From assembly GCA_963768175.1 (NCBI GenBank), contig CAVYGQ010000002.1:80284-144283 (forward strand): a DNA stretch of 64,000 nt, given 5' to 3'. The stretch's first letter is position 1; every line of letters begins with the position of its first letter. The stretch is from Candidatus Doudnabacteria bacterium. Its GTDB lineage: Bacteria; Patescibacteriota; Doudnabacteria; UBA920. Below the pieces are notes generated by a model. That model ran no database searches. It had not been told where the DNA came from and worked only from the letters and a program-made list of their open reading frames with translations. The position numbers and the translations under genes are program-made. Below are positions 26,078 to 46,755 of the stretch, one piece after another.

Positions 26078-26479
26078 ATGTTAAAAGGATTTAAGGATTT
26101 TATTTTGCGCGGCAACGTGGTGGATTTGGCCGTAGGCGTGGTTATGGGCGCGGCTTTCGGCACGGTAGTTGCCGCCATTGTCAAAGATCTGTTAACTCCG
26201 CTGGTCGGAGCCATAGCCAAGGTCCCGAATTTTTCCAATTTGGCGTTTACCATAAACGGCAGCAAGTTTATGTACGGCGATTTTGTTAACGCGCTAATCG
26301 CGTTTTTGCTGGTCGCGGTTTCGGTGTATTTTTTTGTGGTGCTGCCCGTTAACACTTTAATGGCCAAGGTCAAAAGAAATCCGCCGAGCGATCCGACCAC
26401 AAAAAAGTGCCCGCAGTGTCTAAGTGAAATCCCCATTGGCGCCAAGCGCTGCGCTTTTTGTTCCCAGCCGCTTATTTAA
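26078..26479 (+). CDS. mscL: large-conductance mechanosensitive channel with a C-terminal zinc-ribbon tail
   Basis: MLKGFKDFILRGNVVDLAVGVVMGAAFG MscL N-terminus; C-terminal KKCPQCLSEIPIGAKRCAFCSQ. Confidence 0.85.
   Translation: MLKGFKDFILRGNVVDLAVGVVMGAAFGTVVAAIVKDLLTPLVGAIAKVPNFSNLAFTINGSKFMYGDFVNALIAFLLVAVSVYFFVVLPVNTLMAKVKRNPPSDPTTKKCPQCLSEIPIGAKRCAFCSQPLI
26390..26463. repeat. 74-bp direct repeat copy 1 (inside the mscL 3' end)
   Basis: 73/74 identical to 29156-29229. Confidence 0.9.
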
Positions 26480-29149: not shown

Positions 29150-29248
29150 ATGGCTGATCCGGCCACAAAAAAGTGCCCGCAGTGTCTAAGTGAAATCCCC
29201 ATTGGCGCCAAGCGCTGCGCTTTTTGTTCGCAACAATTAACCGTATAA
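29150..29248 (+). CDS. orphan zinc-ribbon peptide (32 aa) duplicating the mscL tail
   Basis: MADPATKKCPQCLSEIPIGAKRCAFCSQQLTV; lies on the second copy of the 74-bp repeat. Confidence 0.35.
   Translation: MADPATKKCPQCLSEIPIGAKRCAFCSQQLTV
29156..29229. repeat. 74-bp direct repeat copy 2
   Basis: Near-identical to 26390-26463. Confidence 0.9.
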
Positions 29249-31650: not shown

Positions 31651-32613
31651 ATGATAAAAAAAGCCGTGCCATTTTTAATAATAGTTTTGCTGGTGGCGGC
31701 CTCAGATGCCGGCACGATATTTTGGTACCAAAAACAAAGTTTAAAACAGCGGCAAACCGAAGCCGCCGAAGTAACCGCTTTGCAAAAACAGATTTCCGGA
31801 TTGCAGAATCAATTAACTACGCTGGATAAACAAAACGCCGCGGCCGCACTGTCAGCCCAGGAAGAGGCTAACCGTCAGGTTGTCCAGCAAAAATCCCAGC
31901 AGGATTTGGTTACCGCCGCCGTGGCCAAGGCCGCGCCGGCCGTGGTTTCCATAATTATTTCCAAAGATGTGCCCCAATACCAGGTAGTCTACCAAAACCC
32001 TTTTGGCGATGACCCGTTTTTCCAAAACTTTGGCATCCAAGTTCCTGAATACGTGCCCACCGGACAAACCCAGTCCCAGGAAGTGGGCGCCGGCAGCGGT
32101 TATCTTATTGCCTCCGACGGCTACATTATTACCAACAAGCACGTGGTGGCCGATACCTCGGCCAGCTATACGGTACTGCTGCAGAACGGCAAACAGCAGA
32201 CCGCGAAGGTTGTTTATAAAGACCCGAATAATGATTTGGCCATAATAAAAATCAGCGGCAGCAATTATTCCGTAATTAATTTTGACAACTCCAATAATTT
32301 ACAGCTCGGGGATACCGTAATTGCCATTGGCAACGCCCTGGGGCAATATAACAATTCCGTTTCTTTGGGGGTGATATCTGGCCTCAACCGGACTATTCAG
32401 GCAACAAGCGAAGACGGTAGCGCGGAAACCTTGACCGGCGTAATCCAGACCGACGCGGCCATTAATCCGGGCAACAGCGGCGGGCCGCTCTTGGACTTAA
32501 ACGGCAATGCCGTAGGCATTAACGTGGCCACGGTGCAGGGGTCAAACAATATCAGCTTTTCCATTCCTTCCAATATGGTGAAAAGCATTATTAAGAGCGC
32601 GATAAACAGATAA
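31651..32613 (+). CDS. trypsin-like serine protease (S1C/DegP-like, without PDZ domain)
   Basis: Catalytic-triad context TNKHVV, D, GNSGGPLLD; N-terminal TM segment plus coiled coil. Confidence 0.8.
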   Translation: MIKKAVPFLIIVLLVAASDAGTIFWYQKQSLKQRQTEAAEVTALQKQISGLQNQLTTLDKQNAAAALSAQEEANRQVVQQKSQQDLVTAAVAKAAPAVVSIIISKDVPQYQVVYQNPFGDDPFFQNFGIQVPEYVPTGQTQSQEVGAGSGYLIASDGYIITNKHVVADTSASYTVLLQNGKQQTAKVVYKDPNNDLAIIKISGSNYSVINFDNSNNLQLGDTVIAIGNALGQYNNSVSLGVISGLNRTIQATSEDGSAETLTGVIQTDAAINPGNSGGPLLDLNGNAVGINVATVQGSNNISFSIPSNMVKSIIKSAINR

Positions 32614-32770
32614 AATAGGATTGATAAAAAACTAAATAATCAGTTACTTGCCCTAAGATTCATAATCATTTTGGCCGGTTGACTGTCTTATTTAACAATT
32701 TTTGTCTTAAGGTGTAAAATAGAGGCAAGTAAAAAAGAGATAAAGGTCGAAATAAAAACCATCAAAATAT

Positions 32771-33151
32771 ATGAATTATTCATGGCAAAAGGGGCTGCTT
32801 TATGGCCTTGGCATCTGGGTGGTCATGTTCGTGATTGTCTCGATATTCGTGGGTTTTAAAGTTTACGACAACCAGGTTAGCAAAGTCATTATCATAATCC
32901 TCAGCGGCGTGGTAACATACTTTTTTGTGCGTTATGCCAAACCGAAAGATTTAACGGTTGGATTATGGTATGGTTTAAGTTGGGTTGTCGTCGGCATGGC
33001 GCTGGATTTTTTAGTGACCATCAGGTTCAGCCCGAACATCTTTAAAAGCAAAAGCCTATGGGCCGGCTACGTGGTAGTATTTTTGGTAGCTTGGTTTGGT
33101 CAAAAGTTGCTTAAGTCACAGACCCCAGCACCGCCCGCCCAAAATCTATAA
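32771..33151 (+). CDS. hypothetical membrane protein
   Basis: 126 aa, four TM segments. Confidence 0.4.
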   Translation: MNYSWQKGLLYGLGIWVVMFVIVSIFVGFKVYDNQVSKVIIIILSGVVTYFFVRYAKPKDLTVGLWYGLSWVVVGMALDFLVTIRFSPNIFKSKSLWAGYVVVFLVAWFGQKLLKSQTPAPPAQNL

Positions 33152-33274
33152 TGGAATAAATAAAATTGTCCTAGCTGGTTCTCATTTGGCTTGGTTAGTA
33201 TTTTTGTATTTTAAGAACCTGTCAGAGTCCAGACAGGTTCAAATGTTTTAGGCGAGCACAAAAAAATCGCCTCT

Positions 33275-33294
33275 AGCCGAGGGTTGATAAAAAT
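33275..33294. repeat. left copy of a perfect 20-bp inverted repeat flanking the tRNA-Asn locus
   Basis: AGCCGAGGGTTGATAAAAAT; its exact reverse complement lies at 33677-33696. Confidence 0.9.
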
Positions 33295-33310
33295 TAATTA
33301 TTTATCCACA

Positions 33311-33341
33311 AAAAAAGCGCACCAATTTGATGCGCTTTTTT
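33311..33341 (-). terminator. rho-independent terminator immediately 3' of the tRNA-Asn gene
   Basis: AAAAAAGCGCA-loop-TGCGCTTTTTTT abutting the encoded CCA. Confidence 0.7.
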
Positions 33342-33628
33342 TGGCTCGGGAGGTGGGATTCGAACCCACGACCCATCGGTTACACTTATCCCGATATTTC
33401 TATCAGGGGTGGACTATATCTTTACCTTAGCCACAAGAGTAGCTTTAGATACCCCGGTATCTAGTCTCTACGGCGCTCCTCCGCATTTGCAGAGGTTCCC
33501 ACGGTATTAGCGTATTAATCAAATGATTAAATTAGCCTTCACCGTTATCCCGGAGAGTTCATCCCAAAGTTTCCTTTGGGAGCTGCGTTATTCCACAGCC
33601 GATTGCTCTACCGCTGAGCTACTCCCGA
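33342..33628 (-). tRNA. tRNA-Asn (anticodon GUU) interrupted by a group I intron
   Basis: The exons (33595-33628 + 33595 5' exon to 33628; 3' exon 33342-33382) give a perfect 76-nt cloverleaf: acceptor TCGGGAG/CTCCCGA, D-arm with G18G19, anticodon stem ATCGG/CCGAT, loop CUGU|UAA, T-loop TTCGAAT, discriminator G, CCA. Confidence 0.75.
33383..33594 (-). ncRNA. group I self-splicing intron (212 nt) in the tRNA-Asn anticodon loop, between nt 35 and 36
   Basis: 5' exon ends in U and pairs as GCUGU with the intron guide GCAGC (U.G at the splice site); P7 strands AGAGACUAGA and AAGAUAUAGUCC; P9 hairpin CCCUGAUA-GAAA-UAUCGGG; terminal G before the 3' exon. Confidence 0.75.
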
Positions 33629-33676
33629 ACAAAAATAGATATTTAATTATCTTTTGATATTTTAGCAGTTAATCCT

Positions 33677-33696
33677 ATTTTTATCAACCCTCGGCT
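33677..33696. repeat. right copy of the 20-bp inverted repeat
   Basis: ATTTTTATCAACCCTCGGCT. Confidence 0.9.
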
Positions 33697-33975
33697 GGGT
33701 TAGCAACAAAGATGGTCATTGTGCTGCATAATATTTAAAGGCCATTTTTGTGAAGTGATTATTTCCGGGAAAAGTGCTAAAATTAAGACAGTTTTATCCT
33801 TTAAGAGTCCTATGACGATAACAGAATTAAAAACGAAGTGGCAAAAAGAAAAAGCCTCTTATACCAAACAAGAGGTTGGCTCTGGCGTTCAAAAATTTGT
33901 TAAGGATATGACAGGTACCCCAAATTCTAGACACTTAGTCTGAGGTATAATAAGGCTAGAAAGGAATCTAACTTT

Positions 33976-34242
33976 ATGCCCAAAGGCAAATACAAAGTCA
34001 GTCCGGAAGTTAAAACTCAAATTCTAAAACGAATTAAGGAAGAAGGTGTCAGCGTCACCCAGGCGGCCGAGGAGCACGGCCTGTCCACCCAAACCATTTA
34101 CGGCTGGATAGCCAAAGGGGTTACAGCTCCGCCGTCCGTGCTTGAACTCTCCCGCCTGAAGCGGGAAAATCAAACCCTCCACGAGATTATCGGCCGGCTG
34201 ACAGTCAAACTGTCATTGGCGGAAAAAAAGGACATTGGTTGA
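33976..34242 (+). CDS. IS3-family transposase OrfA (HTH)
   Basis: 88 aa; helix-turn-helix VSVTQAAEEHGLSTQTIYGW and a leucine-zipper-like C-terminus. Confidence 0.8.
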   Translation: MPKGKYKVSPEVKTQILKRIKEEGVSVTQAAEEHGLSTQTIYGWIAKGVTAPPSVLELSRLKRENQTLHEIIGRLTVKLSLAEKKDIG

Positions 34243-35074
34243 AGACCTGTCCGCCGCTATGCACCTTGAAAATCCGACTAAGACCGAGTTGGCCAGGAGC
34301 TTGGGAGTCAGCAGAGCCAGTCTGTATTACGAACCTACCCTGCCGCAAAAAGACTGGCTCCTTAAAATCCGCATTGAACAAACCCTGCATGACCACCCCA
34401 GCTACGGCCACAAACGGCTGGCTCCGGCGCTACATGTTAACAAGAAAAGAATCCGGCGCACCATGAGGCTGTTTGGTATTAAGCCTTACCGCAGGACAGG
34501 CAGAAAGCTAAGAAAAGCAAGGGATTTGGGACAAATTTCCGCTCCTTACCAAAACTGGCTGATGCTGATTCCGTTTCCAGAAGAGCCGGGAATTGTCTGG
34601 GTCAGTGACTTTACCTACATATCATTCCACGGCCGGTTTGTTTACCTGGCGACGATAATAGATTTATTCACCAGGGAGGTTGTCGGCTGGTCAGTCTGGA
34701 CCGCGCATAGCAGCCAGCTAGTTCTACTGGCTTTAATTGACGCACTGGAAAAACATCCGGCGGCCAAATATCTCCATTCCGACCAGGGGCAAGAATACAA
34801 ATCCCGAACCTACTGTAGGCTGGCCGAACAGGCCGGTATTACAATTTCCATGAGCCACAAATCATCACCGTGGGAGAACGGCTACCAAGAATCCTTTTAT
34901 GGCAAGCTCAAGACTGACTTAGGTGATCCGGGGAGGTTTAAGACCTTGGGAGAGCTAACGGCCGAAATTTACCTCCTCATCTACAGCTACAACCACGACA
35001 GAATCCATACATCATTAAAAATGCCGCCGTCAGCATTTGCCGACCGGCAGCGGAATCAAGTATCATTAACTTAA
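34235..35074 (+). CDS. IS3-family transposase OrfB (DDE integrase core)
   Basis: rve-type core HSDQGQEYKS ... SPWENGYQESFYGKLK; -1 frame relative to orfA. Confidence 0.8.
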   Translation: MVEDLSAAMHLENPTKTELARSLGVSRASLYYEPTLPQKDWLLKIRIEQTLHDHPSYGHKRLAPALHVNKKRIRRTMRLFGIKPYRRTGRKLRKARDLGQISAPYQNWLMLIPFPEEPGIVWVSDFTYISFHGRFVYLATIIDLFTREVVGWSVWTAHSSQLVLLALIDALEKHPAAKYLHSDQGQEYKSRTYCRLAEQAGITISMSHKSSPWENGYQESFYGKLKTDLGDPGRFKTLGELTAEIYLLIYSYNHDRIHTSLKMPPSAFADRQRNQVSLT

Positions 35075-35124
35075 CCTTAAAAAACCGCAGAGAAGGTGCC
35101 TAAAGAAATGGGTACCTTACAAAC

Positions 35125-35334
35125 TTGCATATTAAGGGTGCATCTGCCCAAAATGTGGACGAGGATTTTAATCAAGCCGCAAAATTTTTAATGATGGCTA
35201 TTGATATGTTCAGAAATGAAAAAAGTCACACCTCAGATGCTAAAATAGATGACCCTATTCGTGCTTATCAATATTTAACCATAAGCAGTCTTGCGCTTTC
35301 TTTACTTGAAAATTCAGAGATTAACTCTAAATAG
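35125..35334 (+). CDS. hypothetical protein
   Basis: 69-aa ORF between the IS3 element and the first array repeat. Confidence 0.3.
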   Translation: MHIKGASAQNVDEDFNQAAKFLMMAIDMFRNEKSHTSDAKIDDPIRAYQYLTISSLALSLLENSEINSK

Positions 35335-35354
35335 TAATTGTAAAAAATAAACAA

Positions 35355-35518
35355 ACTAAATCCGCCCCTGTGTAAGGTCAGGAATGTAAATATACCCTTT
35401 ATTTTCCATAATCCTGATTTTGACTTGATAAACTAGGGTGAGCCAACAAAAATCACTCTTAAGTAAGGGTGATTTTTTGTAGGGAGCGTGGACGGTTAGA
35501 ACTGAAATGGTGTATAAT
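35355..35518 (+). repeat. array repeat R1
   Basis: CTAAATCCGCCCCTGTGTAAGGTCAGGAAT ... GAGCCAACAAAA, hairpin ATCACTCTT/AAGGGTGAT with a T run, then GTAGGGAGCGTGGACGGTTAGAAC ... GGTGTATAAT. Confidence 0.85.
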
Positions 35519-35571
35519 GCATATATAATCCTTGAAAAGTCACTACACTTAGTCAACCCAATTATAAAAAT

Positions 35572-35727
35572 ATGGTAAAAGGAAATTTTATTGGTGCGGC
35601 GATTGTTGCAATAATCTACACGGTCTATATTGCATGGCATCCCCTTCCATCCCGCTTACAAACAGCTTTAGTATTAGTGGTTCTCAATGCGTTAACCATT
35701 GTGTTGTTGTCTTTCGCATTCAAATAG
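35572..35727 (+). CDS. small membrane protein (51 aa), copy 1
   Basis: MVKGNFIGAAIVAIIYTVYIAWHPLPSRLQTALVLVVLNALTIVLLSFAFK; about 94% nt identity to 41476-41634. Confidence 0.45.
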   Translation: MVKGNFIGAAIVAIIYTVYIAWHPLPSRLQTALVLVVLNALTIVLLSFAFK

Positions 35728-35730
35728 GAT

Positions 35731-36173
35731 ATGAAAAAAATTCATCTAAAAGCTACCTGGATTATCAAAGCCCCTCGTGAAAAAATTTTTAGGATAATGA
35801 GTGATTTTGAAAATTTTCCCAGTTATTTTCCTGCCGTGGCTCAATCATTGCGCGTTATCAAAAGAAACGGCAATAATCTTACAATAGAAGCTAAAGTAAA
35901 AACATTTGGCCGTACTTTTCCAGTAAATATGGAAACCCAACTTCGTCCGCCGTTTGGGTATGTTTCAAACAATATAAGCGGTATTGGCTCTCGGGCCACG
36001 AAGAATTTTTAATGGAAGAAGTTCCGGAAGGTACAAGAATTAACTATGTTTATGAGGTTGATTTTAAAAATCCATTCCTCCGCGTTTTTGGCAAAATTTT
36101 AATAGGCTGGTATGCGATGCGTTTTTGGGAACATGCAGTTATAGATAAACTGAAAGAAATGTTAGAAAAATAA
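35731..36173 (+). pseudogene. frameshifted SRPBCC (polyketide cyclase/START-like) protein
   Basis: The N-terminal 93 aa (KAPREKIFRIMSDFENFPSYFP) stop at 36012; the C-terminal part (HEEFLMEEVPEGTRINYVYEV...) continues in another frame; total span is not a multiple of 3. Confidence 0.5.
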
Positions 36174-36184
36174 ATCCGTTTTTG

Positions 36185-36316
36185 TGAGGTTGGGTATGTT
36201 GATGTAGCCAGTCTGAGCCATAATTACAGTTCTAACATTGTTCACAGTGCCGAGCCAACAAAAAAACATCAGTATTTACTGGTGTTTTTTGTTACAGGAA
36301 GTGGGACGGTCGAACC
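36185..36316 (+). repeat. array repeat R2
   Basis: GTTCTAACATTGTTCACAGTGCCGAGCCAACAAAA, hairpin, GTTACAGGAAGTGGGACGGTCGAACC (degenerate box). Confidence 0.8.
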
Positions 36317-36378
36317 TAAATATTGGAATTACAGACTTACTTTGACAACTACGTTCTTTTAAGATAATATATGAATAT

Positions 36379-36702
36379 ATGTTCATATATCAACGTTGTG
36401 ATTGCAAAGAATGCAAAATAACCAAAGATTTCCCTGACAGCCGAGTAGAACCGGTAGCGGGCTTATTAAAGTTGGTTTCTGTGCCATCCCGGCTTAATAT
36501 TTTGTTGCTTTTAAAACAGTCGCCCCATTGCGTCTGCGATATTATGACCCATACTAGATTGTCCCAGACGCTTATTTCCCATCATTTATCGGATCTTATG
36601 AAGGCTGGCCTGATAGACAGTAAAAAAGACGGTAAGTTCATTGAATATAACTTAACCGCAAAAGGCAGAAAGGTTGTTGCTAATTTAGTTAAACTATTTT
36701 AA
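36379..36702 (+). CDS. ArsR/SmtB family metalloregulator
   Basis: LNILLLLKQSPHCVCDIMTHTRLSQTLISHHLSDLMKAGLI HTH with a CVCD metal site; Cys-rich N-terminal extension. Confidence 0.8.
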   Translation: MFIYQRCDCKECKITKDFPDSRVEPVAGLLKLVSVPSRLNILLLLKQSPHCVCDIMTHTRLSQTLISHHLSDLMKAGLIDSKKDGKFIEYNLTAKGRKVVANLVKLF

Positions 36703-36725
36703 GCAATTAGTTTGTTTAAAAATAT

Positions 36726-36971
36726 ATGAAAATTCAAGTTTTGGGTTCGGGCTGCCCGACCTGCAAAAAACTTTTTGAAATAACCAAAACTGCCGTAAAA
36801 GACATAGGTATAACCGACGAGGTGGAATACGTTACCGATATACAACAGATTTTAAATATGGGGCTAATGTCCAGCCCAGTTTTGGCAATTAACGGCAAAC
36901 CAGCACTGGTCGGCTTTGTGCCTGACGTAGAAGAAATCAAAAAGGCCATCCTAAAGACGGCTTTAAAATAA
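36726..36971 (+). CDS. thioredoxin-fold protein with a CPTC redox motif
   Basis: 81 aa; MKIQVLGSGCPTCKKLFE. Confidence 0.7.
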   Translation: MKIQVLGSGCPTCKKLFEITKTAVKDIGITDEVEYVTDIQQILNMGLMSSPVLAINGKPALVGFVPDVEEIKKAILKTALK

Positions 36972-36975
36972 CAAT

Positions 36976-37944
36976 ATGAACATTTTTGCACCTGTCCAGT
37001 GGCTGGCTGATTGGCTGACCTATTCAATGTTTAAACTTTTGCCTGACAGTATGGCTGGCAAGGCGATAGATTTTTTTATTTTTGACACGGCCAAGATATT
37101 TATCCTGCTGGCCGTTATTGTATTTGCGGTATCGGTAATCCGATCTTTCCTGCCACCTGAAAAAATAAGAACGATTTTATCCCATAAAAATAAATACGCA
37201 GGAAATGTTATCGCTTCCGTGCTGGGCATTATTACGCCTTTTTGTTCCTGTTCAGCCATTCCTTTATTTTTGGGTTTTGTGCAGGCAGGCGTGCCGTTGG
37301 GGACGACTTTTTCGTTTTTGGTGGCTTCCCCGATGATAAATGAGGTGGCTTTGGTGTTGCTGTTCGGGTTGTTTGGCTGGAGAATTGCCTTGATTTACAT
37401 TTTTAGCGGCCTTGTTATTGCCATCCTTTCGGGTATTGTTATCGGTAGCTTAAAATCTGAAAGTTTAGTTGAACCGTTCGTATTCCAAAATGCCATAAAC
37501 TCTAATGTTGTCCTGCCTGAAATGTCTTGGCGACAGCGGGTGGCTTACGCCAAAGACTACACGCTGGATATTTTGAAAAGGGTTTGGCCTTACATTATTA
37601 TCGGCATTGGCGTTGGAGCTGCAATACACGGCTATGTTCCCACGGACTTTTTAGTAAAATACGCTGGCGGCAACAAATGGTATGGCGTGCCTTTAGCGGT
37701 TTTAATTGGCATACCCCTTTACTCTAATGCCGCAGGAATAATTCTGCTGGTTAGCGTTCTAACTGAAAAAGGCGTCAGTATGGGAACGACTCTGGCGTTT
37801 ATGATGTCTGTAACAGCCCTGTCTTTGCCGGAGTTTATGATTTTGAAAAAAGTAATGAAGTTAAGGCTGATACTAATTTTTGCTGGCGTTGTCGGTTTAG
37901 GGATTATAATTACAGGTTATTTATTCAATATTTTGTTATCTTAA
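36976..37944 (+). CDS. ArsP-like permease (COG0701 family)
   Basis: TPFCSCS motif characteristic of organoarsenical permeases; 8-10 TM segments; co-directional with the ArsR and CPTC-protein genes. Confidence 0.65.
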   Translation: MNIFAPVQWLADWLTYSMFKLLPDSMAGKAIDFFIFDTAKIFILLAVIVFAVSVIRSFLPPEKIRTILSHKNKYAGNVIASVLGIITPFCSCSAIPLFLGFVQAGVPLGTTFSFLVASPMINEVALVLLFGLFGWRIALIYIFSGLVIAILSGIVIGSLKSESLVEPFVFQNAINSNVVLPEMSWRQRVAYAKDYTLDILKRVWPYIIIGIGVGAAIHGYVPTDFLVKYAGGNKWYGVPLAVLIGIPLYSNAAGIILLVSVLTEKGVSMGTTLAFMMSVTALSLPEFMILKKVMKLRLILIFAGVVGLGIIITGYLFNILLS

Positions 37945-38124
37945 GCTGGCTTCGGATGCGCAATAAATATCCAGCCATTCTCAACAAACCACGTTCTAAC
38001 CTCGACGCACAGGTCGGGGCAGGCAGCACCGCGGTGTTGAGCTAACAAAAATTACCCTTATTTAAGGGTAATTTTTGTATACCTATTTTGAAGAATATTT
38101 CCAAAGTTTAAAAAGGTGTATAAT
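37945..38124 (+). repeat. array repeat R3
   Basis: TTATGCGCAATAAATATCCAGCC ... GTTCTAACC ... GAGCTAACAAAA, hairpin TTACCCTTA/TAAGGGTAA, ... GGTGTATAAT. Confidence 0.8.
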
Positions 38125-38171
38125 TAAGGCGAATAAAGTGGACGATCGGAAATAAACATAAAACTAAATAT

Positions 38172-39803
38172 ATGAAATGCGCAAAGTGTAACCGCAGGCT
38201 TGGTATAGGGGCTGAATTTTGCACCAACTGCGGCACGGCAGTCCCGCCGGCTCCCGCGGGGCAAAAGAAAAAAAGTTGGATTAATTTTTTTATTTGGCTG
38301 GGGATGATTGTTTTGCTGACGCCAACCTTATATTATTTCGCTACCCATGGCTCAAATGCGACACGCTACACCGCTCAAGAAAATTTATGGGGTTCGTTGG
38401 CAGTCGCCTTCCTTGCCGCCAGCTTACTTTATTTGATTTATCGCCTAATCTATCACCTGGTTAAATTCACCATCCGCCGGCCGGTGTGGGGCTCAATTCT
38501 TATTGTGATGTTTGTAGTGTGGCCGGCTGTGGGTGGTTTTTTCTATTTGCAAGGCGGTTATCTAAAAACTCAGTTTCAAACAGCGGTAGCCGGTATTCAG
38601 CAGCAATTAGACCAGACGGCAGATGCCAAACTGGCTGGGGATTTATTGGCGGCCAAAAAGCCGGTAGCAGGAATGACAATCGATAATGTTCAAAATCAGG
38701 CAGCACAAGCAGCCAAAAATCTGGCAGCGTTAAAAGTGCCGGATTCGCTGAAAAACTACCAGGCTGTGGCCATCATCTGGTCTTTGCAAGTTGCCAGTAC
38801 TCAGACTGCCGATTGGAAGGGTTTAACGAATCAACCTGCTGATTTTCCATTGGCACTAAACCAGGCCGATGCCAGCAGTACTTTTGCCGCCAGCTTGCAA
38901 ATTATTGATAATCTCAAAAAAGACGGGGCTGATGCCATTAGTAAAAAAGACCGTGTTGCCATGCGGACCGTGGCAGCCAAACTATTGATCCAAGAGCACT
39001 GGCTGAATGCTGTCCTGCATTCAAACACCAACAGCACCGCGCTTAACTTTGCCCTTCCGGCTTTTGCCGATACAGGCTTACAGCCGGTGCCGGACGTGAA
39101 AGGTGTAAATGTAACCTGCTCGGTCTGCGATTATCCGGATGCTTACAAAGTTCACTGGACGGATAGCTTAAGAAAGCTGTACGGCTGCGATACGGCGTGC
39201 CATCCTAAAATTAGAGTCTTACAGACAGGAGGAGGCGGGCAGCAGCAAGTGCAAACTCAGAATCAATCTCAAGCCAGCCAACCAACTGCAAACAATCCTG
39301 CTACTGACAATGAGCTACAATATGCGACTGCTTTAACATCGTATACCTACGCCAATGTGCCTACATATACGATATGCATGGGCTATAACGGCACCGCAAC
39401 CCGGACCAGCGGCACCAACGGCTACTGTTTGCAGGACGCTGTGCAATCCACCAATGAAATTGCCGCTTCGGCCATCGGCTTTTCGGAAAGCACGAAATCT
39501 TTGACAGTCAATCAATGGGATAACGAATATCAACAAATCGATTTAGCCCTGCAGCCGCCGGCCAACGAAACTGGCGCCGCGCCCAGCAAGCCCGCCATCA
39601 CGAACGGGCACACAGAAGGCGGCATGGGCACGGTTTCTAATGGATCCAAAGATAGACCGATACTAAATCCTAATTGCAATCCTTTTGAAGAAGATTGCGA
39701 TCCTTACAGTGCACCAATCAATAACACCCCTTCACCGGGTATAGATTGTGGCGATAACGCACCTCCCTCTGATATTCCTTGCAACCTTCGGCATCTTCCG
39801 TAG
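38172..39803 (+). CDS. membrane protein with an N-terminal zinc ribbon and a large extracytoplasmic domain
   Basis: CAKCNRRLGIGAEFCTNCG, then TM segments, then a roughly 400-aa Gln/Ala/Thr-rich domain. Confidence 0.4.
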   Translation: MKCAKCNRRLGIGAEFCTNCGTAVPPAPAGQKKKSWINFFIWLGMIVLLTPTLYYFATHGSNATRYTAQENLWGSLAVAFLAASLLYLIYRLIYHLVKFTIRRPVWGSILIVMFVVWPAVGGFFYLQGGYLKTQFQTAVAGIQQQLDQTADAKLAGDLLAAKKPVAGMTIDNVQNQAAQAAKNLAALKVPDSLKNYQAVAIIWSLQVASTQTADWKGLTNQPADFPLALNQADASSTFAASLQIIDNLKKDGADAISKKDRVAMRTVAAKLLIQEHWLNAVLHSNTNSTALNFALPAFADTGLQPVPDVKGVNVTCSVCDYPDAYKVHWTDSLRKLYGCDTACHPKIRVLQTGGGGQQQVQTQNQSQASQPTANNPATDNELQYATALTSYTYANVPTYTICMGYNGTATRTSGTNGYCLQDAVQSTNEIAASAIGFSESTKSLTVNQWDNEYQQIDLALQPPANETGAAPSKPAITNGHTEGGMGTVSNGSKDRPILNPNCNPFEEDCDPYSAPINNTPSPGIDCGDNAPPSDIPCNLRHLP

Positions 39804-39954
39804 AAAAATAGCCAAATAAATTTTCAAGATGTTTTTTAGCAATTGAAATCCGGAAAACCATCGGTTCCAGATTTTTGCTTACCCGCGTGGAATTTAAATC
39901 AAAATCAAATATAAAAATCGTCGGCGGCTGAGCAGTTCAGCCGCCGTCTGGGCA

Positions 39955-40290
39955 CTACGCATGGTTATTCCAGTCACTGGAGTCGTAACTTGGTGATCGC
40001 CCGCTTGAAGTACCTCCTATCGCCACGCCTTTGTGATATGTTGTCCCGCCTCCGCTGGAACCACCAGTACTCTTTTTGTCCTCTTTGCCACAAAAAGGCA
40101 GGAAAAGGAGTGCAAATGGCAGCGCGAGGATTCGGCTGACAAGCGGAGTGATGGCGAAAAGCCCGGCTATTACCAAGTACCCCAGGAAGGTGTACTTGCC
40201 AGTGATCGCCAGCACCAAAATGCTCAGTAGGTACAGCCAGTGCGAGAAACATTGGGCTTTCCGATAAACTTTGCGTAACCTTTGGTTCAT
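39955..40290 (-). CDS. hypothetical membrane protein (the only minus-strand gene in the array)
   Basis: 111 aa, two TM segments, Gly/Ser-rich tail. Confidence 0.4.
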   Translation of the reverse strand: MNQRLRKVYRKAQCFSHWLYLLSILVLAITGKYTFLGYLVIAGLFAITPLVSRILALPFALLFLPFCGKEDKKSTGGSSGGGTTYHKGVAIGGTSSGRSPSYDSSDWNNHA

Positions 40291-40469
40291 AAATCCCTCC
40301 TCTTTGGGATTGTAATATTATACTCCTTTGCTCTTACCTGTAAAGAAGGAAATATAAGCAAGCCCTTATTTATATGTTTAAAAAATCGTTCAAAATTCCC
40401 ATGACCCAAGTGTCTAGCGCAAGGCTCCAAAAAACCCCGGGGATTTGTCCAAAGGGGCGACCGCAATCC

Positions 40470-40592
40470 AGCCGCTGAGCCAACAAAAATCACTCTTGAG
40501 TAAGGGTGGTTTTTTGTAGGGAACGTAGATGGTTAGAACTTTAAAATATTGCCAGACACTTGACAGACATATCTTATATGATATACTATAAT
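40470..40592 (+). repeat. array repeat R4 carrying the toxin-gene promoter
   Basis: GAGCCAACAAAAATCACTCTTGAGTAAGGGTGGTTTTTTGTAGGGAACGTAGATGGTTAGAAC, then TTGACA-16-TATACT. Confidence 0.8.
40559..40592 (+). promoter_or_regulatory. sigma-70-like promoter for the toxin-antitoxin operon
   Basis: TTGACA (40559-40564), 16-nt spacer, TATACT/TATAAT. Confidence 0.5.
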
Positions 40593-40601
40593 AAAAGCCT
40601 T

Positions 40602-40967
40602 ATGGACGAGTATAAAGTTAAATTTTTTTCCGACCCTGTAACCGGCAAAATTCCCGTCCGTCAATATTTAGATAATCTATCGGACAAGGAACGGGCGAAG
40701 GTTTTAAAGTATATTGAATTTTTGAGGCAGTACAAAGGCGTGTTGGATGAGCCATATACCAAGCATATTCGCGACAAGATTAGGGAATTACGCATAGATT
40801 TCAGTACTAATAGGCACCGTATTTTCTTTTTTACTTTTGTCGGGAAAAACATTATCCTGCTTCATGCTTTTCTTAAGAAGACCTCTAAAACTCCAGGGTC
40901 AGAAATCAGCAAAGCCCTAAGCAATTATCATAAAGTTATCAATAACCCAAAAACCTATGAAAACTAG
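40602..40967 (+). CDS. RelE/ParE-superfamily toxin (HigB / phage Gp49-like)
   Basis: About 121 aa from the Met at 40602; RIFFFTFVGKNIILLHAFLKKTSKTP core; toxin upstream of an HTH antitoxin as in HigBA. Confidence 0.6.
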   Translation: MDEYKVKFFSDPVTGKIPVRQYLDNLSDKERAKVLKYIEFLRQYKGVLDEPYTKHIRDKIRELRIDFSTNRHRIFFFTFVGKNIILLHAFLKKTSKTPGSEISKALSNYHKVINNPKTYEN

Positions 40968-41256
40968 CAAAAACCTTAAAAACAATATTAGTTTCCAGTC
41001 TTACCTAAACAACCAGCTCAAAAATCCGCAGATAAAGAAACGTTATGACCAAGTTGGTAAGCAGCTAGAAGTGGCCTATCAAATTGTCCAATTGCGGAAG
41101 ATGCGCGGCATATCCCAATTGGAGCTGGCAAAAAGACTGGGTACAACTCAAAGCAACATTGCTCGGATTGAAGCCGGACAACAAAATTTTACCACTTTAA
41201 CCTTGCAAAAAATCGCAAAAATATTCAAGCGCGATTTGAACATTGAGTTTGTTTAG
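40957..41256 (+). CDS. XRE-family HTH antitoxin (HigA-like)
   Basis: LRKMRGISQLELAKRLGTTQSNIARIEAG; overlaps the toxin gene by 11 nt. Confidence 0.7.
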   Translation: MKTSKNLKNNISFQSYLNNQLKNPQIKKRYDQVGKQLEVAYQIVQLRKMRGISQLELAKRLGTTQSNIARIEAGQQNFTTLTLQKIAKIFKRDLNIEFV

Positions 41257-41261
41257 AAAAT

Positions 41262-41430
41262 AACCAACCTAAATCCGTCCCTGTGTGAGGTCAGGAATAT
41301 AGATATTCCCTTGAAATTCAACTATCTTGGTTCTAACGTTCTTCACAGTGCCGAGCCAACTAAAATCCCCCAAATCCTTGGGGGGTTTTAGTATACGAAC
41401 TAGACGCTCGGAACCGAAAGGGCGTATAAT
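41262..41430 (+). repeat. array repeat R5
   Basis: CTAAATCCGTCCCTGTGTGAGGTCAGGAAT ... GGTTCTAACGTTCTTCACAGTGCCGAGCCAAC, hairpin CCCCCAA/TTGGGGGG, ... GGCGTATAAT. Confidence 0.85.
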
Positions 41431-41475
41431 AAAAATACGCAAAGGTCGTTAACAAAAATCTAATTGAAATAAAAT

Positions 41476-41634
41476 ATGGTAAAAGGAAATTTTATTGGTG
41501 CGGCGATTGTCGCAATAATCTACACGGTCTATATTGCATGGAAGCCTCTTCCAACGCGCTTACAAACAGCTTTAGTATTAGTGGTTCTCAATGCGTTAAC
41601 CATTGTGTTGTTGTCTTTCGCATTCAAAAGATAA
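41476..41634 (+). CDS. small membrane protein (52 aa), copy 2
   Basis: MVKGNFIGAAIVAIIYTVYIAWKPLPTRLQTALVLVVLNALTIVLLSFAFKR. Confidence 0.45.
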   Translation: MVKGNFIGAAIVAIIYTVYIAWKPLPTRLQTALVLVVLNALTIVLLSFAFKR

Positions 41635-41647
41635 AAAAATCTTCAAT

Positions 41648-41944
41648 ATGTGGCAATTATATACATTTAGCTTTTTAGCAGGTCTGTTTGCGGCAAACGG
41701 AACCCCGCATTTTATTAAGGGTGTCATGGGACAAAAGCATCAAACCCCATTCGGCAAGCCTTCGTCGGCCGTAGTTAATGTCTGCTGGGGTTGGATTAAC
41801 TTTGTTGTAGCCGTTATTTTTTTTCACTTCGGCCATGTGCACACTCATGAGAATAGAGCATTTGCGATGTTGGCCGTAGGAGCACTACTGATGAGCTTGC
41901 TTTTGGCTACGGTCTGGTCAAAGCATCCAGAATATAATAAGTGA
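41648..41944 (+). CDS. hypothetical membrane protein
   Basis: 98 aa from the Met at 41648; three TM segments. Confidence 0.4.
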   Translation: MWQLYTFSFLAGLFAANGTPHFIKGVMGQKHQTPFGKPSSAVVNVCWGWINFVVAVIFFHFGHVHTHENRAFAMLAVGALLMSLLLATVWSKHPEYNK

Positions 41945-41969
41945 CTTTGTCTCTTAACCATAGACGGTT

Positions 41970-42548
41970 TTGTATAATGATCCCATGTACGACTACGGCT
42001 ATGTCATCATCGCAAGTTGGTTGGTCCTTATGGCGGTGTGGGTGCTAGGCGCCTTTACCGCCAAACGCGACGTTTCAAGCAGCAGAAGCTCTGTTCTTTG
42101 GCTCTGGCGGCTCCTTTTGTTGGGGCTCTTGATTTTTGCTCTGCGAAATCCGTATGACGATGCGTCCGTCCTAAAGCGAGCATTCTTTAATTTTGGCCCC
42201 GCACTCAACTGGGTTGGCGCATTTTTAACCGTTATCGGAATCACGTTTGCGATCTGGGCGCGGTACCGCTTGGGACGCAACTGGGGCTCACGTCAGAAAG
42301 AAGATCCCGTGTTGGTGACCAGCGGCCCCTACGCATATGTCCGCCATCCGATTTATACCGGCGCTACTTTCGCGCTTTTCGGCAGTGCATTGACCGGAAG
42401 CATTGTGGCCGTTGTGCTGTTTATTATAAGCATTATCTTTTGTCTGCGCCGCATCGACAAAGAAGAGCGCGTGATGCTCAGCCTTTTCCCCGGGCAATAT
42501 CCGGCCTATCAAGCGCGTACCAAGCGGCTCATACCGCTCGTGTGGTAA
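41970..42548 (+). CDS. isoprenylcysteine carboxyl methyltransferase (ICMT) family membrane methyltransferase
   Basis: YAYVRHPIYTGATFALFG (RHPxY..G) and C-terminal EERVMLSLFPGQYPAY motifs. Confidence 0.75.
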   Translation: MYNDPMYDYGYVIIASWLVLMAVWVLGAFTAKRDVSSSRSSVLWLWRLLLLGLLIFALRNPYDDASVLKRAFFNFGPALNWVGAFLTVIGITFAIWARYRLGRNWGSRQKEDPVLVTSGPYAYVRHPIYTGATFALFGSALTGSIVAVVLFIISIIFCLRRIDKEERVMLSLFPGQYPAYQARTKRLIPLVW

Positions 42549-42569
42549 TCATACCGGACGGAGCGCTTC

Positions 42570-42826
42570 TTCTTTATGCGCAATAAATATCCAGCCGTTC
42601 TCCACAAACCATGTTCTAACCCCGACGCAAGGTCGGGGCAAGCAGCGTCCGCAGCATTGAGCCATTCGACCCATTCGGCTTTCGCTCAGGGTCGCCCCGA
42701 GGGAACTCGAGGGGCGACAAGCTCATGGCCTGCGGCCAACAAAAGTCGCCCATATTTGTGGGCGATTTTTGTATAGGGAAGTGGGACGATTAGAACTGAA
42801 AAGGTATTTTTGAGTGTGATATAATT
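42570..42826 (+). repeat. array repeat R6 (extended)
   Basis: TTATGCGCAATAAATATCCAGCC ... GTTCTAACCCCGACG ... 59-bp block GAGCCATTCG...GAGGGGCGA ... GGCCAACAAAA, hairpin GTCGCCCA/TGGGCGAT, GTATAGGGAAGTGGGACGATTAGAAC ... TATAAT. Confidence 0.85.
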
Positions 42827-42836
42827 AAGTTACCTT

Positions 42837-43718
42837 ATGAAAATAAAAGGAATCGAAAAATTCAGAGAAAAAGTTCCAATGCTACGAGGCAAGAAGTTAT
42901 TTTTGTTGCCTTTGTACGCATTTTCTGTCTTGTCTCTTAGCCTTTTGGTGCTGATAGGATTTGATTCACTACCGGGTATGGCTAAGCTAAACGGCATCAA
43001 TTCTATTTTATTTTCCCTGTTTCCTCTCATTGGAGAAGTAATTATCTGTACTGTTGGACTCATTCTGGTTTACCAGATGTGGTTTCGGAAAAATCGGCTA
43101 AAAGCCAAATATGGTCCGCTCTCTTATCAACATATCTTCCTTGTGGGCTTTGCCGGTGTTTCTTGCTTGCTCTCTTTATCAATTAATCTGTTTGTTCATT
43201 ATTGGTCGTTCTCGTCATTATTTTGGATAAATTCACCGCTTAAATTTCTCACAATTCCGCTAGAAGAATATTTTTACACTTTAGGAGTAATGATATTTTG
43301 GGTAAAAATAGCTCTTTCAGTTTTTTTCTCGATTTTGGGGATTGCGATGATGCTTCGGGCTCTACAAACATTCGGATTTGATTATATGACAGTGCTTTAT
43401 CTTTATTTTCCCGAAGAAAGCAAAATACAGAATCACAAAATTTATTCTACTCTTAGGCACCCTACGTACGCAGGGGCTCTGCTAATAGGTTTAGGCGGGA
43501 TGTTCTCCACGCTTACCTTATATTCGGTCATCTTTTTTGTTGTTTACCTATTAGCTTTTTATATTCACATACATTTCGTAGAAGAGAAAGAACTTATTGT
43601 GCGGTTCGGGCCATCGTATCAAGAATACATGAATAAAGTACCAGCCTTTTTTGTCAATCTCAATAAACTGGGAGTTCTTTTGGGTTTCCTGCTAGGAAGG
43701 TCTGATAACAATTTTTAA
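42837..43718 (+). CDS. polytopic membrane protein with a C-terminal ICMT-like (RHPxY) domain
   Basis: YSTLRHPTYAGALLIGLGG and EEKELIVRFGPSYQEYMNKVPAF. Confidence 0.55.
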   Translation: MKIKGIEKFREKVPMLRGKKLFLLPLYAFSVLSLSLLVLIGFDSLPGMAKLNGINSILFSLFPLIGEVIICTVGLILVYQMWFRKNRLKAKYGPLSYQHIFLVGFAGVSCLLSLSINLFVHYWSFSSLFWINSPLKFLTIPLEEYFYTLGVMIFWVKIALSVFFSILGIAMMLRALQTFGFDYMTVLYLYFPEESKIQNHKIYSTLRHPTYAGALLIGLGGMFSTLTLYSVIFFVVYLLAFYIHIHFVEEKELIVRFGPSYQEYMNKVPAFFVNLNKLGVLLGFLLGRSDNNF

Positions 43719-43724
43719 CATCGT

Positions 43725-43905
43725 TCCGTAGGATTTATATCGGGGATATAAATCTCTCCGGTTTCCGTAATTTTGGTTCTAACGTTATCTACGATGCCGA
43801 GCCATTCGACCCATTCGGCTTTCGCTCAGGGTCGCCCCGAGGGAACTCGAGGGGCGATTTTTATATAGGGAGGTGTAAAGGTTAGAACTGAAAATGGTGT
43901 ATAAT
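43725..43905 (+). repeat. array repeat R7
   Basis: GGTTCTAACGTTATCTACGATGCCGAGCCATTCG ... identical 59-bp block ... ATATAGGGAGGTGTAAAGGTTAGAACTGAAAATGGTGTATAAT. Confidence 0.85.
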
Positions 43906-43949
43906 GATTAAAAGGTCGGCTTTGTTTAATTACTATTTAATATAAACAA

Positions 43950-44330
43950 ATGAACGCCTCAATTACTATTGTTCAGTTTTTAGGAATTCTTTTCGCCGGT
44001 ATAGGTATATCAGTTGTTATTGACAAAAAGAACATATCTGCCGCCATTAGAGAGATAACTAAAAATCAAGGTACGTTATGGATGTGGGGTTTTCTTACCT
44101 TAACCATTGGCGCTGTCTTTCTTGTGCTGAATCACACTTGGACACCCCGTTTACCATTAGTCGTGACCATCGTTGGCTGGCTAACTTTGATAAAGGGGCT
44201 TTATATTCTCATCTTCCCAAACTCCGCCGTTTCAATGTACGAAAAGTGCAATAAAGACAGCATATTTATTCCTTGCGGAATCATTGCTTTCATTTTAGGC
44301 TTAGTTTTGCTTTACCTGGGATTTATGTAA
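43950..44330 (+). CDS. membrane protein (126 aa), paralog A
   Basis: Four TM segments; same length and topology as 47661-48041. Confidence 0.45.
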   Translation: MNASITIVQFLGILFAGIGISVVIDKKNISAAIREITKNQGTLWMWGFLTLTIGAVFLVLNHTWTPRLPLVVTIVGWLTLIKGLYILIFPNSAVSMYEKCNKDSIFIPCGIIAFILGLVLLYLGFM

Positions 44331-44339
44331 TACTGCGCG

Positions 44340-44423
44340 GCGGTCGTTGTCAATGATGGTGAGCCAACAAAATCCTCAATGTTTATTGAGGATTTTTGTA
44401 TAGGGAGGTGGGATGGTAGAACC
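44340..44423 (+). repeat. array repeat R8
   Basis: GAGCCAACAAAATCCTCAATGTTTATTGAGGATTTTTGTATAGGGAGGTGGGATGGTAGAACC. Confidence 0.85.
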
Positions 44424-44538
44424 TAAAACGATGGCAAGTGGCGGGTTGGTATAAAAATTGCTATTATAGAAACGAGGGATTAATCAAAATAAACGCGCAA
44501 CTCTTAAAGGTACGAGGATGAACCACTAAAATTATATT

Positions 44539-44928
44539 ATGGCGTATCAGAATAAAAAAATCCTGGTGGTGGAAGACGATGATTTGCTCAGAAGAATCAT
44601 CACCAATCAGTTATCCGCAAACTATACAATTATATCCGCCGCTGATGGCGAGGAAGCCCTGCAACAGACAGAAAGCCAAAGGCCGGACATTATAGTCTTG
44701 GATTTGCTGTTGCCTAAGTTGGATGGCTTTGGTTTTTTGGAGAAATTGCGGAATTCTCCCGACCCAGTATTAGCAAAAACAGTGGTCTTGGTGGTCAGCA
44801 ATTTATCAGATCCCAAAAATATAGAGAGGGCAAGCCAATACAAGGTGTTAGAGTATTATATTAAATCAGATCTTCAACTTGGCATTTTACTAAATAGGGT
44901 TAACCGATATTTTGCCCAAGGCACATAA
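44539..44928 (+). CDS. stand-alone response-regulator receiver (CheY-like) domain protein
   Basis: KILVVEDDDLLRR ... DIIVLDLLLPKLDG ... VVLVVSNLSD. Confidence 0.85.
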   Translation: MAYQNKKILVVEDDDLLRRIITNQLSANYTIISAADGEEALQQTESQRPDIIVLDLLLPKLDGFGFLEKLRNSPDPVLAKTVVLVVSNLSDPKNIERASQYKVLEYYIKSDLQLGILLNRVNRYFAQGT

Positions 44929-45125
44929 ATAGCCAAAAGCGCTTCTTCTTTTTTATGCGCAATAAATATCCGGCCATTCTTCATAAGCTACATTTAAATA
45001 GCGTCCGCAGCGTTGAGCTAAAAACCCCATTGAAAGATAGTGTTTTTTGTTATCATATAAATAAAAAAATTTGATTGATTTTTTGACGCATTATTAAATA
45101 TGTATTAAAATTATATTGCAATAAT

Positions 45126-46091
45126 ATGTTGCGAGACCCGGTAAAAAAAGCCGGTTTTAGCTATCCACTGCCAGTCAGCGTCGGTTTAGCGCTGCTGTTT
45201 TTATTTGTAATCTTAATCCCCAAATCTTTTGCTGGCATTAGCGATTGCTCGGCCGGCTACGAATTCCAGCGGATGAGCGGGGTAGGTTGCGTACAAAAAA
45301 ATTGCGCTTTGGTTCCCAATGCCCATTATAGTTACGAAGGGTATTGCATTTGCGGCTCGGCAGGCAGTATTAATGAAAATCCAAACGACCCAAATAAAAG
45401 ATGCACCTTACCTCACGATAATGCGGCTTGTCCCGATTGCGTTTATGCTTGTGTCCACAATAATGAAGACTGCCCAAGCCAAAAGCCTGCCGGGCAACAG
45501 TCAACAACCCAACCGTCGGCTCAGGAACAGGAAAGGATAATAAACGCGCTTAGCCAGTCTCCGTTCGGCAGCCCGAATAAAACCAAAGTAGTGACAGCCG
45601 GCATCAGTTGGGAAGCAATAACAAGCATTGTTAAAAGGGGGTTTGGGGCAATTATGGCCGGAACGGGATGGGTGCTGGACAAAACTACCGGCTACCAAAT
45701 TATACAAGATAAGGGGAATACGGATTCCGGTTGGGCGGGAATGGTGGTTGCTCCCAATGGAGATTATGTGAATGTCAAGATATTTGAAGGCAGGCTGGAA
45801 TTAAGCTGGGAAAAAGGCGTAGCCGCCGAATTTAATCTTATTTCCGTAAAAGGCCGGCCAGGCAGCCATAGTTTTATTGACGGATTTTCCATCGGTATTG
45901 GGCCGGGGGCGGTGAATAAAGACGAAGGCGATCATGAAATTCCGGGCACTCCTATTTCGCCCAATATTAATTTTGGGAATATCAGAGATTATTTCGGTGA
46001 AAAATGGGACAGCGTAAAAAATTGGTGGCACGAAAATGCCCCCTGGCCTCTGGGCGGGGTTAATACACCTAACATTGGCGGTGGGCAATAA
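45126..46091 (+). CDS. secreted Cys-rich protein, function unknown
   Basis: N-terminal signal/TM segment; about 14 Cys within the first 110 residues. Confidence 0.4.
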   Translation: MLRDPVKKAGFSYPLPVSVGLALLFLFVILIPKSFAGISDCSAGYEFQRMSGVGCVQKNCALVPNAHYSYEGYCICGSAGSINENPNDPNKRCTLPHDNAACPDCVYACVHNNEDCPSQKPAGQQSTTQPSAQEQERIINALSQSPFGSPNKTKVVTAGISWEAITSIVKRGFGAIMAGTGWVLDKTTGYQIIQDKGNTDSGWAGMVVAPNGDYVNVKIFEGRLELSWEKGVAAEFNLISVKGRPGSHSFIDGFSIGIGPGAVNKDEGDHEIPGTPISPNINFGNIRDYFGEKWDSVKNWWHENAPWPLGGVNTPNIGGGQ

Positions 46092-46097
46092 AAAATT

Positions 46098-46517: not shown

Positions 46518-46619
46518 AATGAAGCAGCAAATTTCCTAGAACTCTCGGTAAATAACCACAGATTTTTTTATCCATGTTAAAAAGGGGCAAGCGTCAACCT
46601 TGGCTTTGCCTTGGACAAA

Positions 46620-46714
46620 ACGGGTCGTTCAGCAGCCATAGCCAACAAAAGTCGCCCATATTTGTGGGCGATTTTTGTATCTTACTATGCGGTTTTGAGC
46701 TTGTTTGATATAAT
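46620..46714 (+). repeat. array repeat R9
   Basis: AGCCAACAAAAGTCGCCCATATTTGTGGGCGATTTTTGTAT (hairpin identical to R6) ... GATATAAT. Confidence 0.75.
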
Positions 46715-46755
46715 TATAGTGCTATAAAATAATAAGTTTTTAAGGAAACAAAAAT

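Follow-up and report, generated by a model that had tools for sequence, protein, structure and literature searches.

The 64,000-nucleotide stretch of contig CAVYGQ010000002.1 from a Candidatus Doudnabacteria bacterium (hereafter the window) carries a tRNA-Asn gene that is interrupted by a group I intron and bracketed by a perfect 20-bp inverted repeat. This feature is best read as an inversion scar that preserved the promoter, in which the two arms would be copies of the -35 box region of the tRNA-Asn gene itself and the unit between them would have been flipped in an ancestor. We hold this reading with about as much confidence as doubt. The proposed cause of the flip is recombination of one -35 copy with the other.

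The left arm, AGCCGAGGGTTGATAAAAAT at 33275-33294 on the plus strand, is matched by its exact reverse complement at 33677-33696 on the minus strand (20/20 positions complementary). The arms are 382 nt apart, and the bracketed segment including them is 422 bp long (33275-33696). When the 64-kb window was searched for the 20-mer with up to three mismatches, only the two arms were returned, with an expectation of zero from 100 shuffles. Among the perfect inverted repeats of the window with arms 30-1000 nt apart it is the longest, the runner-up having 13 nt, and in 200 first-order Markov simulations the longest perfect inverted repeat did not exceed 17 nt. Identity is lost sharply on either side of both arms. 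The perfect repeat reported in the first-pass annotation is therefore a real, unique and non-random feature. The doubt raised there, that it might stem from an unrelated dispersed family, could be set aside, because no further copy of the 20-mer was found in the window and an exact scan of two public collections (genome contigs and metagenome contigs) gave no match. Three more inverted matches pair 32617-32693 with 33678-33792 but do not line up as one inverted repeat; of these, site A alone is meaningful and is described below.

Read on the minus strand, the bracketed unit consists of promoter spacer, -10 box, an intron-split tRNA-Asn(GUU) and a terminator, and represents one transcription unit. 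The first-pass annotation had assigned only the tRNA-Asn gene and its terminator to the segment; both are present, but the promoter spacer and the -10 box lie inside as well. Each arm is predicted to be a copy of the -35 box region of this promoter, the right one working and the left one inverted and non-functional (see the table). The left arm sits 14 bp past the tRNA terminator. The promoter TTGATAAAA(A/G/C)...TGCTA(A/G)AAT is found upstream of tRNA-Asn in six related loci (L009, L005, L035, L037, L038, and L040), and in all six the conservation stops at the -35 box. In the comparison of the right arm with L009, the inner 12 nt are conserved and the outer 8 nt differ. The relic TTCATAAAAAC in L038 is the positional homologue of the innermost 11 nt of the left arm. 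At the place of the left arm, L037 has the working promoter, with the tRNA oriented the other way, and L038 has this decayed relic, with the tRNA oriented as in the window. As the repeat includes the -35 box and an inverting segment would take the -10 box along, a full promoter results in either orientation. An inversion of the segment would thus be expected to leave the expression of the tRNA and its neighbours unchanged, with no evident switch logic. The motif GGGTTAGCAAC, which adjoins the right arm, probably marks the boundary of the downstream cassette array.

Table. Features of the tRNA-Asn locus and its surroundings in the window (array, cassette array of intergenic elements; L-numbers, related loci)
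Feature	Position	Strand	Basis or remark
Site A: tRNA-Asn -35 relic (AGGATTGATAAAAAACTAAATA) directly after the protease stop codon; left copy of the duplication flanking the o126 insertion	32617-32638	+	
645-bp insertion relative to L038, with an orphan ORF, its promoter and its terminator (33215-33240)	32639-33283	+	
Left arm (B), AGCCGAGGGTTGATAAAAAT: putative inverted, non-functional copy of the -35 region	33275-33294	+	no -10 box 16-18 nt downstream
tRNA terminator: A-tract, hairpin, T-tract, symmetric on both strands	33309-33343	-	17-nt arms, 94% complementary
tRNA-Asn exon 2 including the encoded CCA	33382-33342	-	splicing; same sequence in seven related loci
Group I intron, 212 nt, at anticodon-loop position 35/36	33594-33383	-	RF00028 match and exon splicing
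tRNA-Asn exon 1	33628-33595	-	exons spliced in silico
tRNA-Asn promoter: TTGATA (33687-33682), 17-nt spacer, TAAAAT (33664-33659) after TG	33659-33687	-	10/12 consensus matches
Right arm (C): predicted working -35 hexamer with 9 nt upstream of it and 5 nt of the spacer	33677-33696	-	
GGGTTAGCAAC adjoining the right arm	33697-33707	+	like array motif GGTTAGAAC; L009 counterpart GGGGTTGCAGC
IS3-family insertion sequence, orfA and orfB in overlapping frames	33909-35121	+	context, outside the repeat
Array element E2: degenerate tRNA-Asn 3′ part (GTTCTAAC...GCCGAGCCAAC), terminator and following sequence	36229-36335	+	

Related loci, referred to by L-numbers, were found via the neighbouring trypsin-like protease gene (31651-32613) and belong to metagenome-assembled genomes of Candidatus Doudnabacteria and other Patescibacteria; strands in these loci are given relative to the protease gene. 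In L037 (88% amino acid identity of the protease), the tRNA gene is on the plus strand, and the protease stop codon is followed by GGGGTTGATAAAAAC...TAGAAT, an intron-less tRNA and a convergent large serine recombinase gene. In L038 (87%), the gene is on the minus strand, and the order is stop codon, CAGATTCATAAAAAC, 16 nt, a terminator of the window type, the tRNA with a 207-nt intron, the promoter and an E1-like array element. In L035 and L036 (89%), an ArsR-DinB cluster is followed by the promoter and the tRNA with a 552-nt intron on the plus strand, whereas in L009, L034, and L039 (81%) the ArsR flank seen in L035 is followed by the tRNA on the minus strand and by a promoter that abuts the array start. 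Beside the protease gene, L037 (+) is thus opposed to L038 and the window (-), and beside the ArsR-DinB cluster L035 (+) is opposed to L009 (-), the ArsR-side flank being common to both. Orthologous loci therefore occur in opposite orientation. The promoter-to-array junction is common to the window, L038, and L009, all three of which carry the tRNA on the minus strand. Each break point has a copy of the repeat: a relic on the protease side (site A or the left arm in the window, and the relic of L038) and the working -35 box at the other end.

A neighbour-joining tree of the protease gene, the branches of which are short, pairs the window (-) with L035 (+) and L038 (-) with L037 (+); if these pairings are right, more than one flip has taken place. 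The independent assemblies of relatives show one orientation each (L009, L034, and L039; L035 and L036). A scan of metagenomes for the exon-intron junction returned solely a second copy of the L009 strain, and near the protease gene of L041, L002, L003, and L004 no tRNA-Asn was found.

The relic on the protease side, site A, matches the arm core at 13 of 14 positions, and its region aligns with the working promoter of L037 (L037 2162-2226 versus window 32581-32646). Positions 1631-1648 of L038 align both with site A (window 32621-32638) and with the inner left arm together with the sequence beyond it (33284-33300). This double alignment implies that the protease-side -35 copy predates the split between the window and L038 and that the relic was split in the window by the 645-bp insertion. 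The -35 relic is directly duplicated over 18 bp, with one copy on each side of the insertion, which contains o126, an orphan membrane-protein open reading frame (ORF) of 126 aa (32771-33151), for which no homologue was found among 5.8 billion proteins. Its final 9 nt (AGCCGAGGG) constitute the outer part of the left arm.

The inversion appears to be old and not private to the window, because L038 and L009 share it, L009 does so without a left arm, none being found there, and the outer 8 nt of its right arm differ. The first-pass annotation had proposed that the segment was inverted through the repeats and had called for a comparison with related genomes. Both orientations in relatives and the -35 relic by the protease gene speak for the inversion, but it is neither recent nor private: L038 and L009 share the minus orientation, the former with a relic of 10/11 only in place of the left arm. 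The 20/20 identity of the arms, on the other hand, would be a later event in the window lineage, because the 9 nt of AGCCGAGGG lie outside the old relic. Site A and the left arm originated by duplication and have diverged at about 4 of 22 positions, and the left and right arms are identical at 20 of 20. This identity could be due to gene conversion, to a template switch from one arm to the other, or to the relic-splitting insertion, if the arm came with it or the promoter region served as its template. A score matrix in which the relic of each genome was compared with its own promoter and with those of the other genomes gave no lineage-specific signal of concerted evolution.

An inversion between the -35 repeats would be the simplest history, given the two orientations in relatives and the -35 relic by the protease gene in genomes with the minus orientation. 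The ancestor would have carried, in this order, the protease gene, the promoter, the tRNA on the plus strand, the terminator, an inverted -35-like sequence and the array, with the tRNA pointing into the cassette array. Recombination with end points in the -35 box copies would then have inverted the spacer, the -10 box, the tRNA with its intron and the terminator. The outcome would be a relic -35 box by the protease gene and a working promoter by the array, as seen in L038, L009, and the window. With a full promoter kept in either orientation, the flip would have been harmless and able to persist, and for the same reason the inversion of an essential gene was probably tolerated. According to the GC skew, the plus strand is the leading strand; the tRNA gene would now be oriented head-on to replication, which fits a derived state.

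Evolutionary inversions between short repeats are known from organelle tRNA genes and from chromosomal inversions between inverted repeated genes. They share with this locus an orientation that differs among relatives and a repeat at both break points. The present case differs in its scale of about 400 bp, in that the repeat is the gene's own -35 box, and in the perfection of the arms in a single lineage despite the greater age of the inversion.

Several points weigh against an ancestral flip at the -35 copies. A repeat of 10-14 bp is short for RecA-dependent recombination. The corresponding inverted repeat around the tRNA in L038 comprises 10/11 positions, or 14/18 when extended inward (p ~0.07), and in L040 (+) the -35 region with spacer matches the post-terminator sequence in inverted orientation at 16/20 positions (p ~0.004); each of these values is weak when taken alone. 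An inverted -35 copy was not detected in L035 (+), no relative with the opposite orientation and the same 20-bp arms was found, and in L037 the integrated serine-recombinase element hides the expected site of the second repeat copy. The outward extension of identity by 9 nt has no demonstrated mechanism, and the differences in orientation could stem from other rearrangements in a very plastic locus.

The first-pass annotation had also considered the segment to be switchable. An active inverton, flipped reversibly by a recombinase encoded elsewhere and with arms kept identical by repeated exchange, seems unlikely here. Perfect 20-bp arms around a segment of about 400 bp are typical of invertible promoters, both orientations occur among close relatives with at least two flips being required by the protease tree, and the identity of the left and right arms is perfect as against the divergence between site A and the left arm. 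Global invertases that act at a distance exist. Within the 64-kb window, however, neither a tyrosine nor a serine recombinase is encoded: plausible ORFs of 120 aa or more, apart from overlapping antisense ORFs and three others, were scanned against Pfam, and no recombinase was found, only the DDE transposase of the IS3 element. For efficient RecA-dependent recombination 20 bp is too short.

In the alternative orientation, the left arm would be joined to AGGATTAACTGC, and TAATTATTTATC (reverse complement) to the right arm. Contig L001 of the Logan collection (run ERR10755942), the one independent assembly of the window strain, which is identical to window 32454-33381, crosses the left arm unbroken in the reference orientation. 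For the right junction, no independent contig was found with queries taken from that side of the tRNA, namely the split Ymh gene (as 43 aa and as 74 aa) and ORFs of 51 and 93 aa. The independent assemblies of relatives with their single orientations speak against an active inverton as well, as does the matrix of promoter versus downstream scores with its lack of lineage-specific concerted evolution. Furthermore, a flip would keep the tRNA promoter and put a two-way terminator at either end, so that no gene would be switched. L001 ends at the boundary of exon 2 and intron (window 33381), which would fit co-occurring strains that share the 41-nt exon and differ in intron content.

Compared with known invertons such as E. 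coli fimS, the invertible promoters of Bacteroides and the loci collected by PhaseFinder and DeepInverton, the locus has the same short inverted repeats and a segment of a few hundred bp with promoter elements. It departs from them in the layout of the promoter, whose -35 box belongs to the repeat and whose -10 box belongs to the segment, so that it is complete both ways, and in that the cargo is a tRNA gene with its own terminator and no downstream gene is switched. The flanking inverted repeats of an inverton are thus present, but the 64-kb window encodes no dedicated invertase, and inversion would not be expected to alter the expression of flanking genes. In addition, nothing in the assembled sequences shows present-day switching of the segment. 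An active flip would make the locus the first known inverton-like element to enclose a tRNA gene, and the first in the candidate phyla radiation (CPR).

A templated duplication, in which template switching or repair in the 3′ flank of the tRNA, a region prone to rearrangement, copied 20 bp of the promoter region in inverted form without any inversion of the segment, is likewise unlikely. It would explain the sharp ends of the arms, the lack of a target-site duplication and the restriction of the left arm to the window genome. A direct repeat with 13/14 matches, CACAAAAAAA(T/G)CGC, is located on either side of the left arm (33257-33270 and 33307-33320). Quasi-palindromes are known to be corrected by template switching, a well-established source of mutations. 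Such correction would lengthen a short imperfect inverted repeat by copying of the flank, which matches the 9-nt outward extension, but it usually acts over a few to tens of bases between the arms, whereas these are 382 nt apart here. Since the left arm is positionally homologous to L038 over its inner 11 nt and in what follows them, the -35-like relic predates the lineage, and a templated duplication leaves both site A and the opposite orientation of L037 at the same place unexplained.

The remaining recombination-based explanations draw on the cassette array at 35335-46760, which is composed of co-oriented cassettes with one or two genes. Its cargo comprises ArsR, a thioredoxin-like protein, an ArsP permease, a HigB/XRE pair, ICMT-like methyltransferases, a response regulator and small membrane proteins. 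The intergenic elements between 35.4 and 46.7 kb contain a degenerate tRNA 3′ part (GTTCTAAC...GCCGAGCCAAC), a terminator hairpin and an extended -10 promoter (GTGGACGGTTAGAACTGAAA-GGTGTATAAT). The sequence directly 3′ of the plus-strand tRNA-Asn in L035 aligns with element E2 (window 36250-36335), from which it follows that the array repeats are displaced tRNA-Asn 3′ ends with terminator. The canonical arrangement would accordingly be a tRNA that points into the array, as the first-pass annotation had expected for the flipped segment. The motif GTTCTAACC occurs six times on the plus strand of the window, in each case within the array, and both this motif and GGTTAGAAC are array-specific within the window.

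It is conceivable, but rather improbable, that the unit is a flip-flop cassette, with a distant recombinase that recognises GGTT-type sites including the -35 region, builds the array and flips the tRNA unit. If this were true, the strong promoter and the 3′ attachment end of the tRNA would face either the array or the opposite flank, where the serine-recombinase elements of relatives integrate, and a new kind of recombination system in CPR bacteria would be involved.

Even less probable is an origin of the arms as junctions made by the array-building recombination system, with the tRNA unit as a cassette that can be placed in either orientation. In detail, a cassette end AGCCGAG, similar to the GCCGAG/CCAAC ends in the array, would be joined to a GGTTGATAA target that resembles GGTTAGAAC. 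The AGCCGAG at the end of the o126 insertion and beside the right arm matches the conserved 3′ motif of the cassettes, the right arm and its flank form a dyad (TTATCAACCC, TCGGCT, GGGTTAGCAA), the duplication around o126 has the same core and is att-like, and the array-specificity of the motifs points in the same direction. The similarity between arm and array motifs is low, however, at about 5/9 positions, and past 9 nt the two putative cassette ends have nothing in common. The window yielded no integrase, and the folding of the array elements is unlike that of the attC sites of integrons. The latter are bulged single-strand hairpins with pairing of R″-L″ and L′-R′ that are processed together with IntI; an assignment of the array elements to this class was rejected, as only 1/5 elements pairs its GTTCTAAC and GTTAGAAC ends and the z-scores are mostly weak.

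A miniature inverted-repeat transposable element (MITE) carrying the tRNA gene is effectively refuted: perfect 20-bp terminal inverted repeats around a 422-bp unit would suit it, but no target-site duplication is visible by eye (flanks CTCT and GGGT), no other copy was found in the window or the two public collections, the right arm contains, in its inner 12 nt, promoter sequence that is conserved where relatives lack the left arm, and the ends of the IS3 element are unrelated to the arms. Pairing of the arms in a precursor RNA as a processing stem, as in rRNA operons, is excluded despite 20 nt of perfect complementarity around a structured RNA gene, since the right arm with the -35 box lies upstream of the transcription start, the left arm lies past the terminator, and relatives lack the pairing. 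The direct att repeats of an element integrated at the tRNA were rejected as well, the repeat being inverted and promoter-derived and direct remnants of the 3′ end lying in the array, away from this repeat.

The tRNA-Asn gene itself was detected neither by ARAGORN nor by Rfam at the gathering threshold. A permissive Rfam search gave a match to RF00028 on the minus strand (45 bits, E 3.5e-10), compared with a gathering score of 50. The other Rfam matches (among them IS128, STnc40, and Thr leader) were rejected as noise, since they lie far under their gathering scores and are driven by the terminator. The joined exons form a 75-nt tRNA-Asn(GTT), i.e., with a GUU anticodon, that is identical to the intron-less gene of L037, and this match sets the limits of the intron and its site. 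The intron-containing gene on the minus strand, read by the first-pass annotation from the letters, could be verified in this way.

Group I introns at position 35/36 of tRNA-Asn in Patescibacteria that are missed by annotation tools have been described (Nakagawa et al., 2026, PMC13011429), with no mention of flanking repeats or of inversion. Phylum, tRNA, insertion site and the failure of tRNA finders are all alike here, and the intron appears to belong to this class, with self-splicing as a prediction; the likeness concerns the cargo of the segment and not the inverted repeat. Among close relatives the intron varies: it is absent from L037 (gene at 2262-2336), measures 207-214 nt in the window, L038, and L009, and is longer in L035 (6924-7475), L005, and L040 (12808-13424) with 551-616 nt, the intron of L040 holding an HNH-like ORF.

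The terminator at 33309-33343 is kept in L038, and in L009 it survives as a displaced copy. In the latter locus, a serine-recombinase element separates the tRNA gene from its displaced 3′ remnant and terminator (14030-14095), which lie 4.6 kb away. In L037 (2337-3864), L009 (14030-18699), and L005 (502-2085), a large serine recombinase element directly follows the CCA of tRNA-Asn, and its recombinase gene converges on the tRNA; the window has no such element. Mobile elements are known to integrate at tRNA 3′ ends, with attL/attR direct repeats and tandem accretion, and this clade likewise has a hot spot of integration at the 3′ end of tRNA-Asn; displaced 3′ remnants with terminators are found in the array and in L009. 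The 20-bp repeat differs from such sites in being inverted and promoter-derived instead of a direct repeat of the tRNA 3′ end.

Within the array, a duplicated cassette start, AAACTAAATCCGCCCCTGTGT(A/G)AGGTCAGGAAT..., is followed by a membrane ORF of 51-52 aa at 35335-35730 and 41250-41630 (96% over 158 nt), and the first of the two copies recurs where the array of L009 begins. Between the tRNA unit and the array, the IS3 element splits a Ymh-like (PF09509) gene into 33812-33908 and 35122-35334. Copies with 99.9-100% identity were found in L031-L033, which are other contigs of ENA assembly ERZ25039512 and one Logan run, and this near-identity indicates recent activity of the element. Further upstream in the window, a 77-nt direct repeat (97% identity) of the mscL 3′ end at 26390-26466 and 29156-29232 flanks about 2.8 kb that are absent from L035, where the flanking sequences are adjacent; the region looks like another insertion with a long direct repeat. 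Furthermore, an ORF that fuses LexA DNA-binding, S24 peptidase and N6/N4 DNA methyltransferase domains and a complete restriction-modification enzyme of the MmeI type are encoded at 4677-6239 and 11166-13892.

Inversion between short repeats is an already known kind of rearrangement, and new here is the variant that would preserve the promoter. The locus would offer a small-scale example of an essential and probably single-copy tRNA gene that was inverted without loss of expression, with break points in its own -35 box. As it stands, the finding is mainly of use for annotation and for reconstructing the origin of the neighbouring cassette array. In the very small genomes of the Doudnabacteria, the tRNA-Asn locus is a recombination hot spot, at which intron and orientation vary and single-gene cassettes are anchored.

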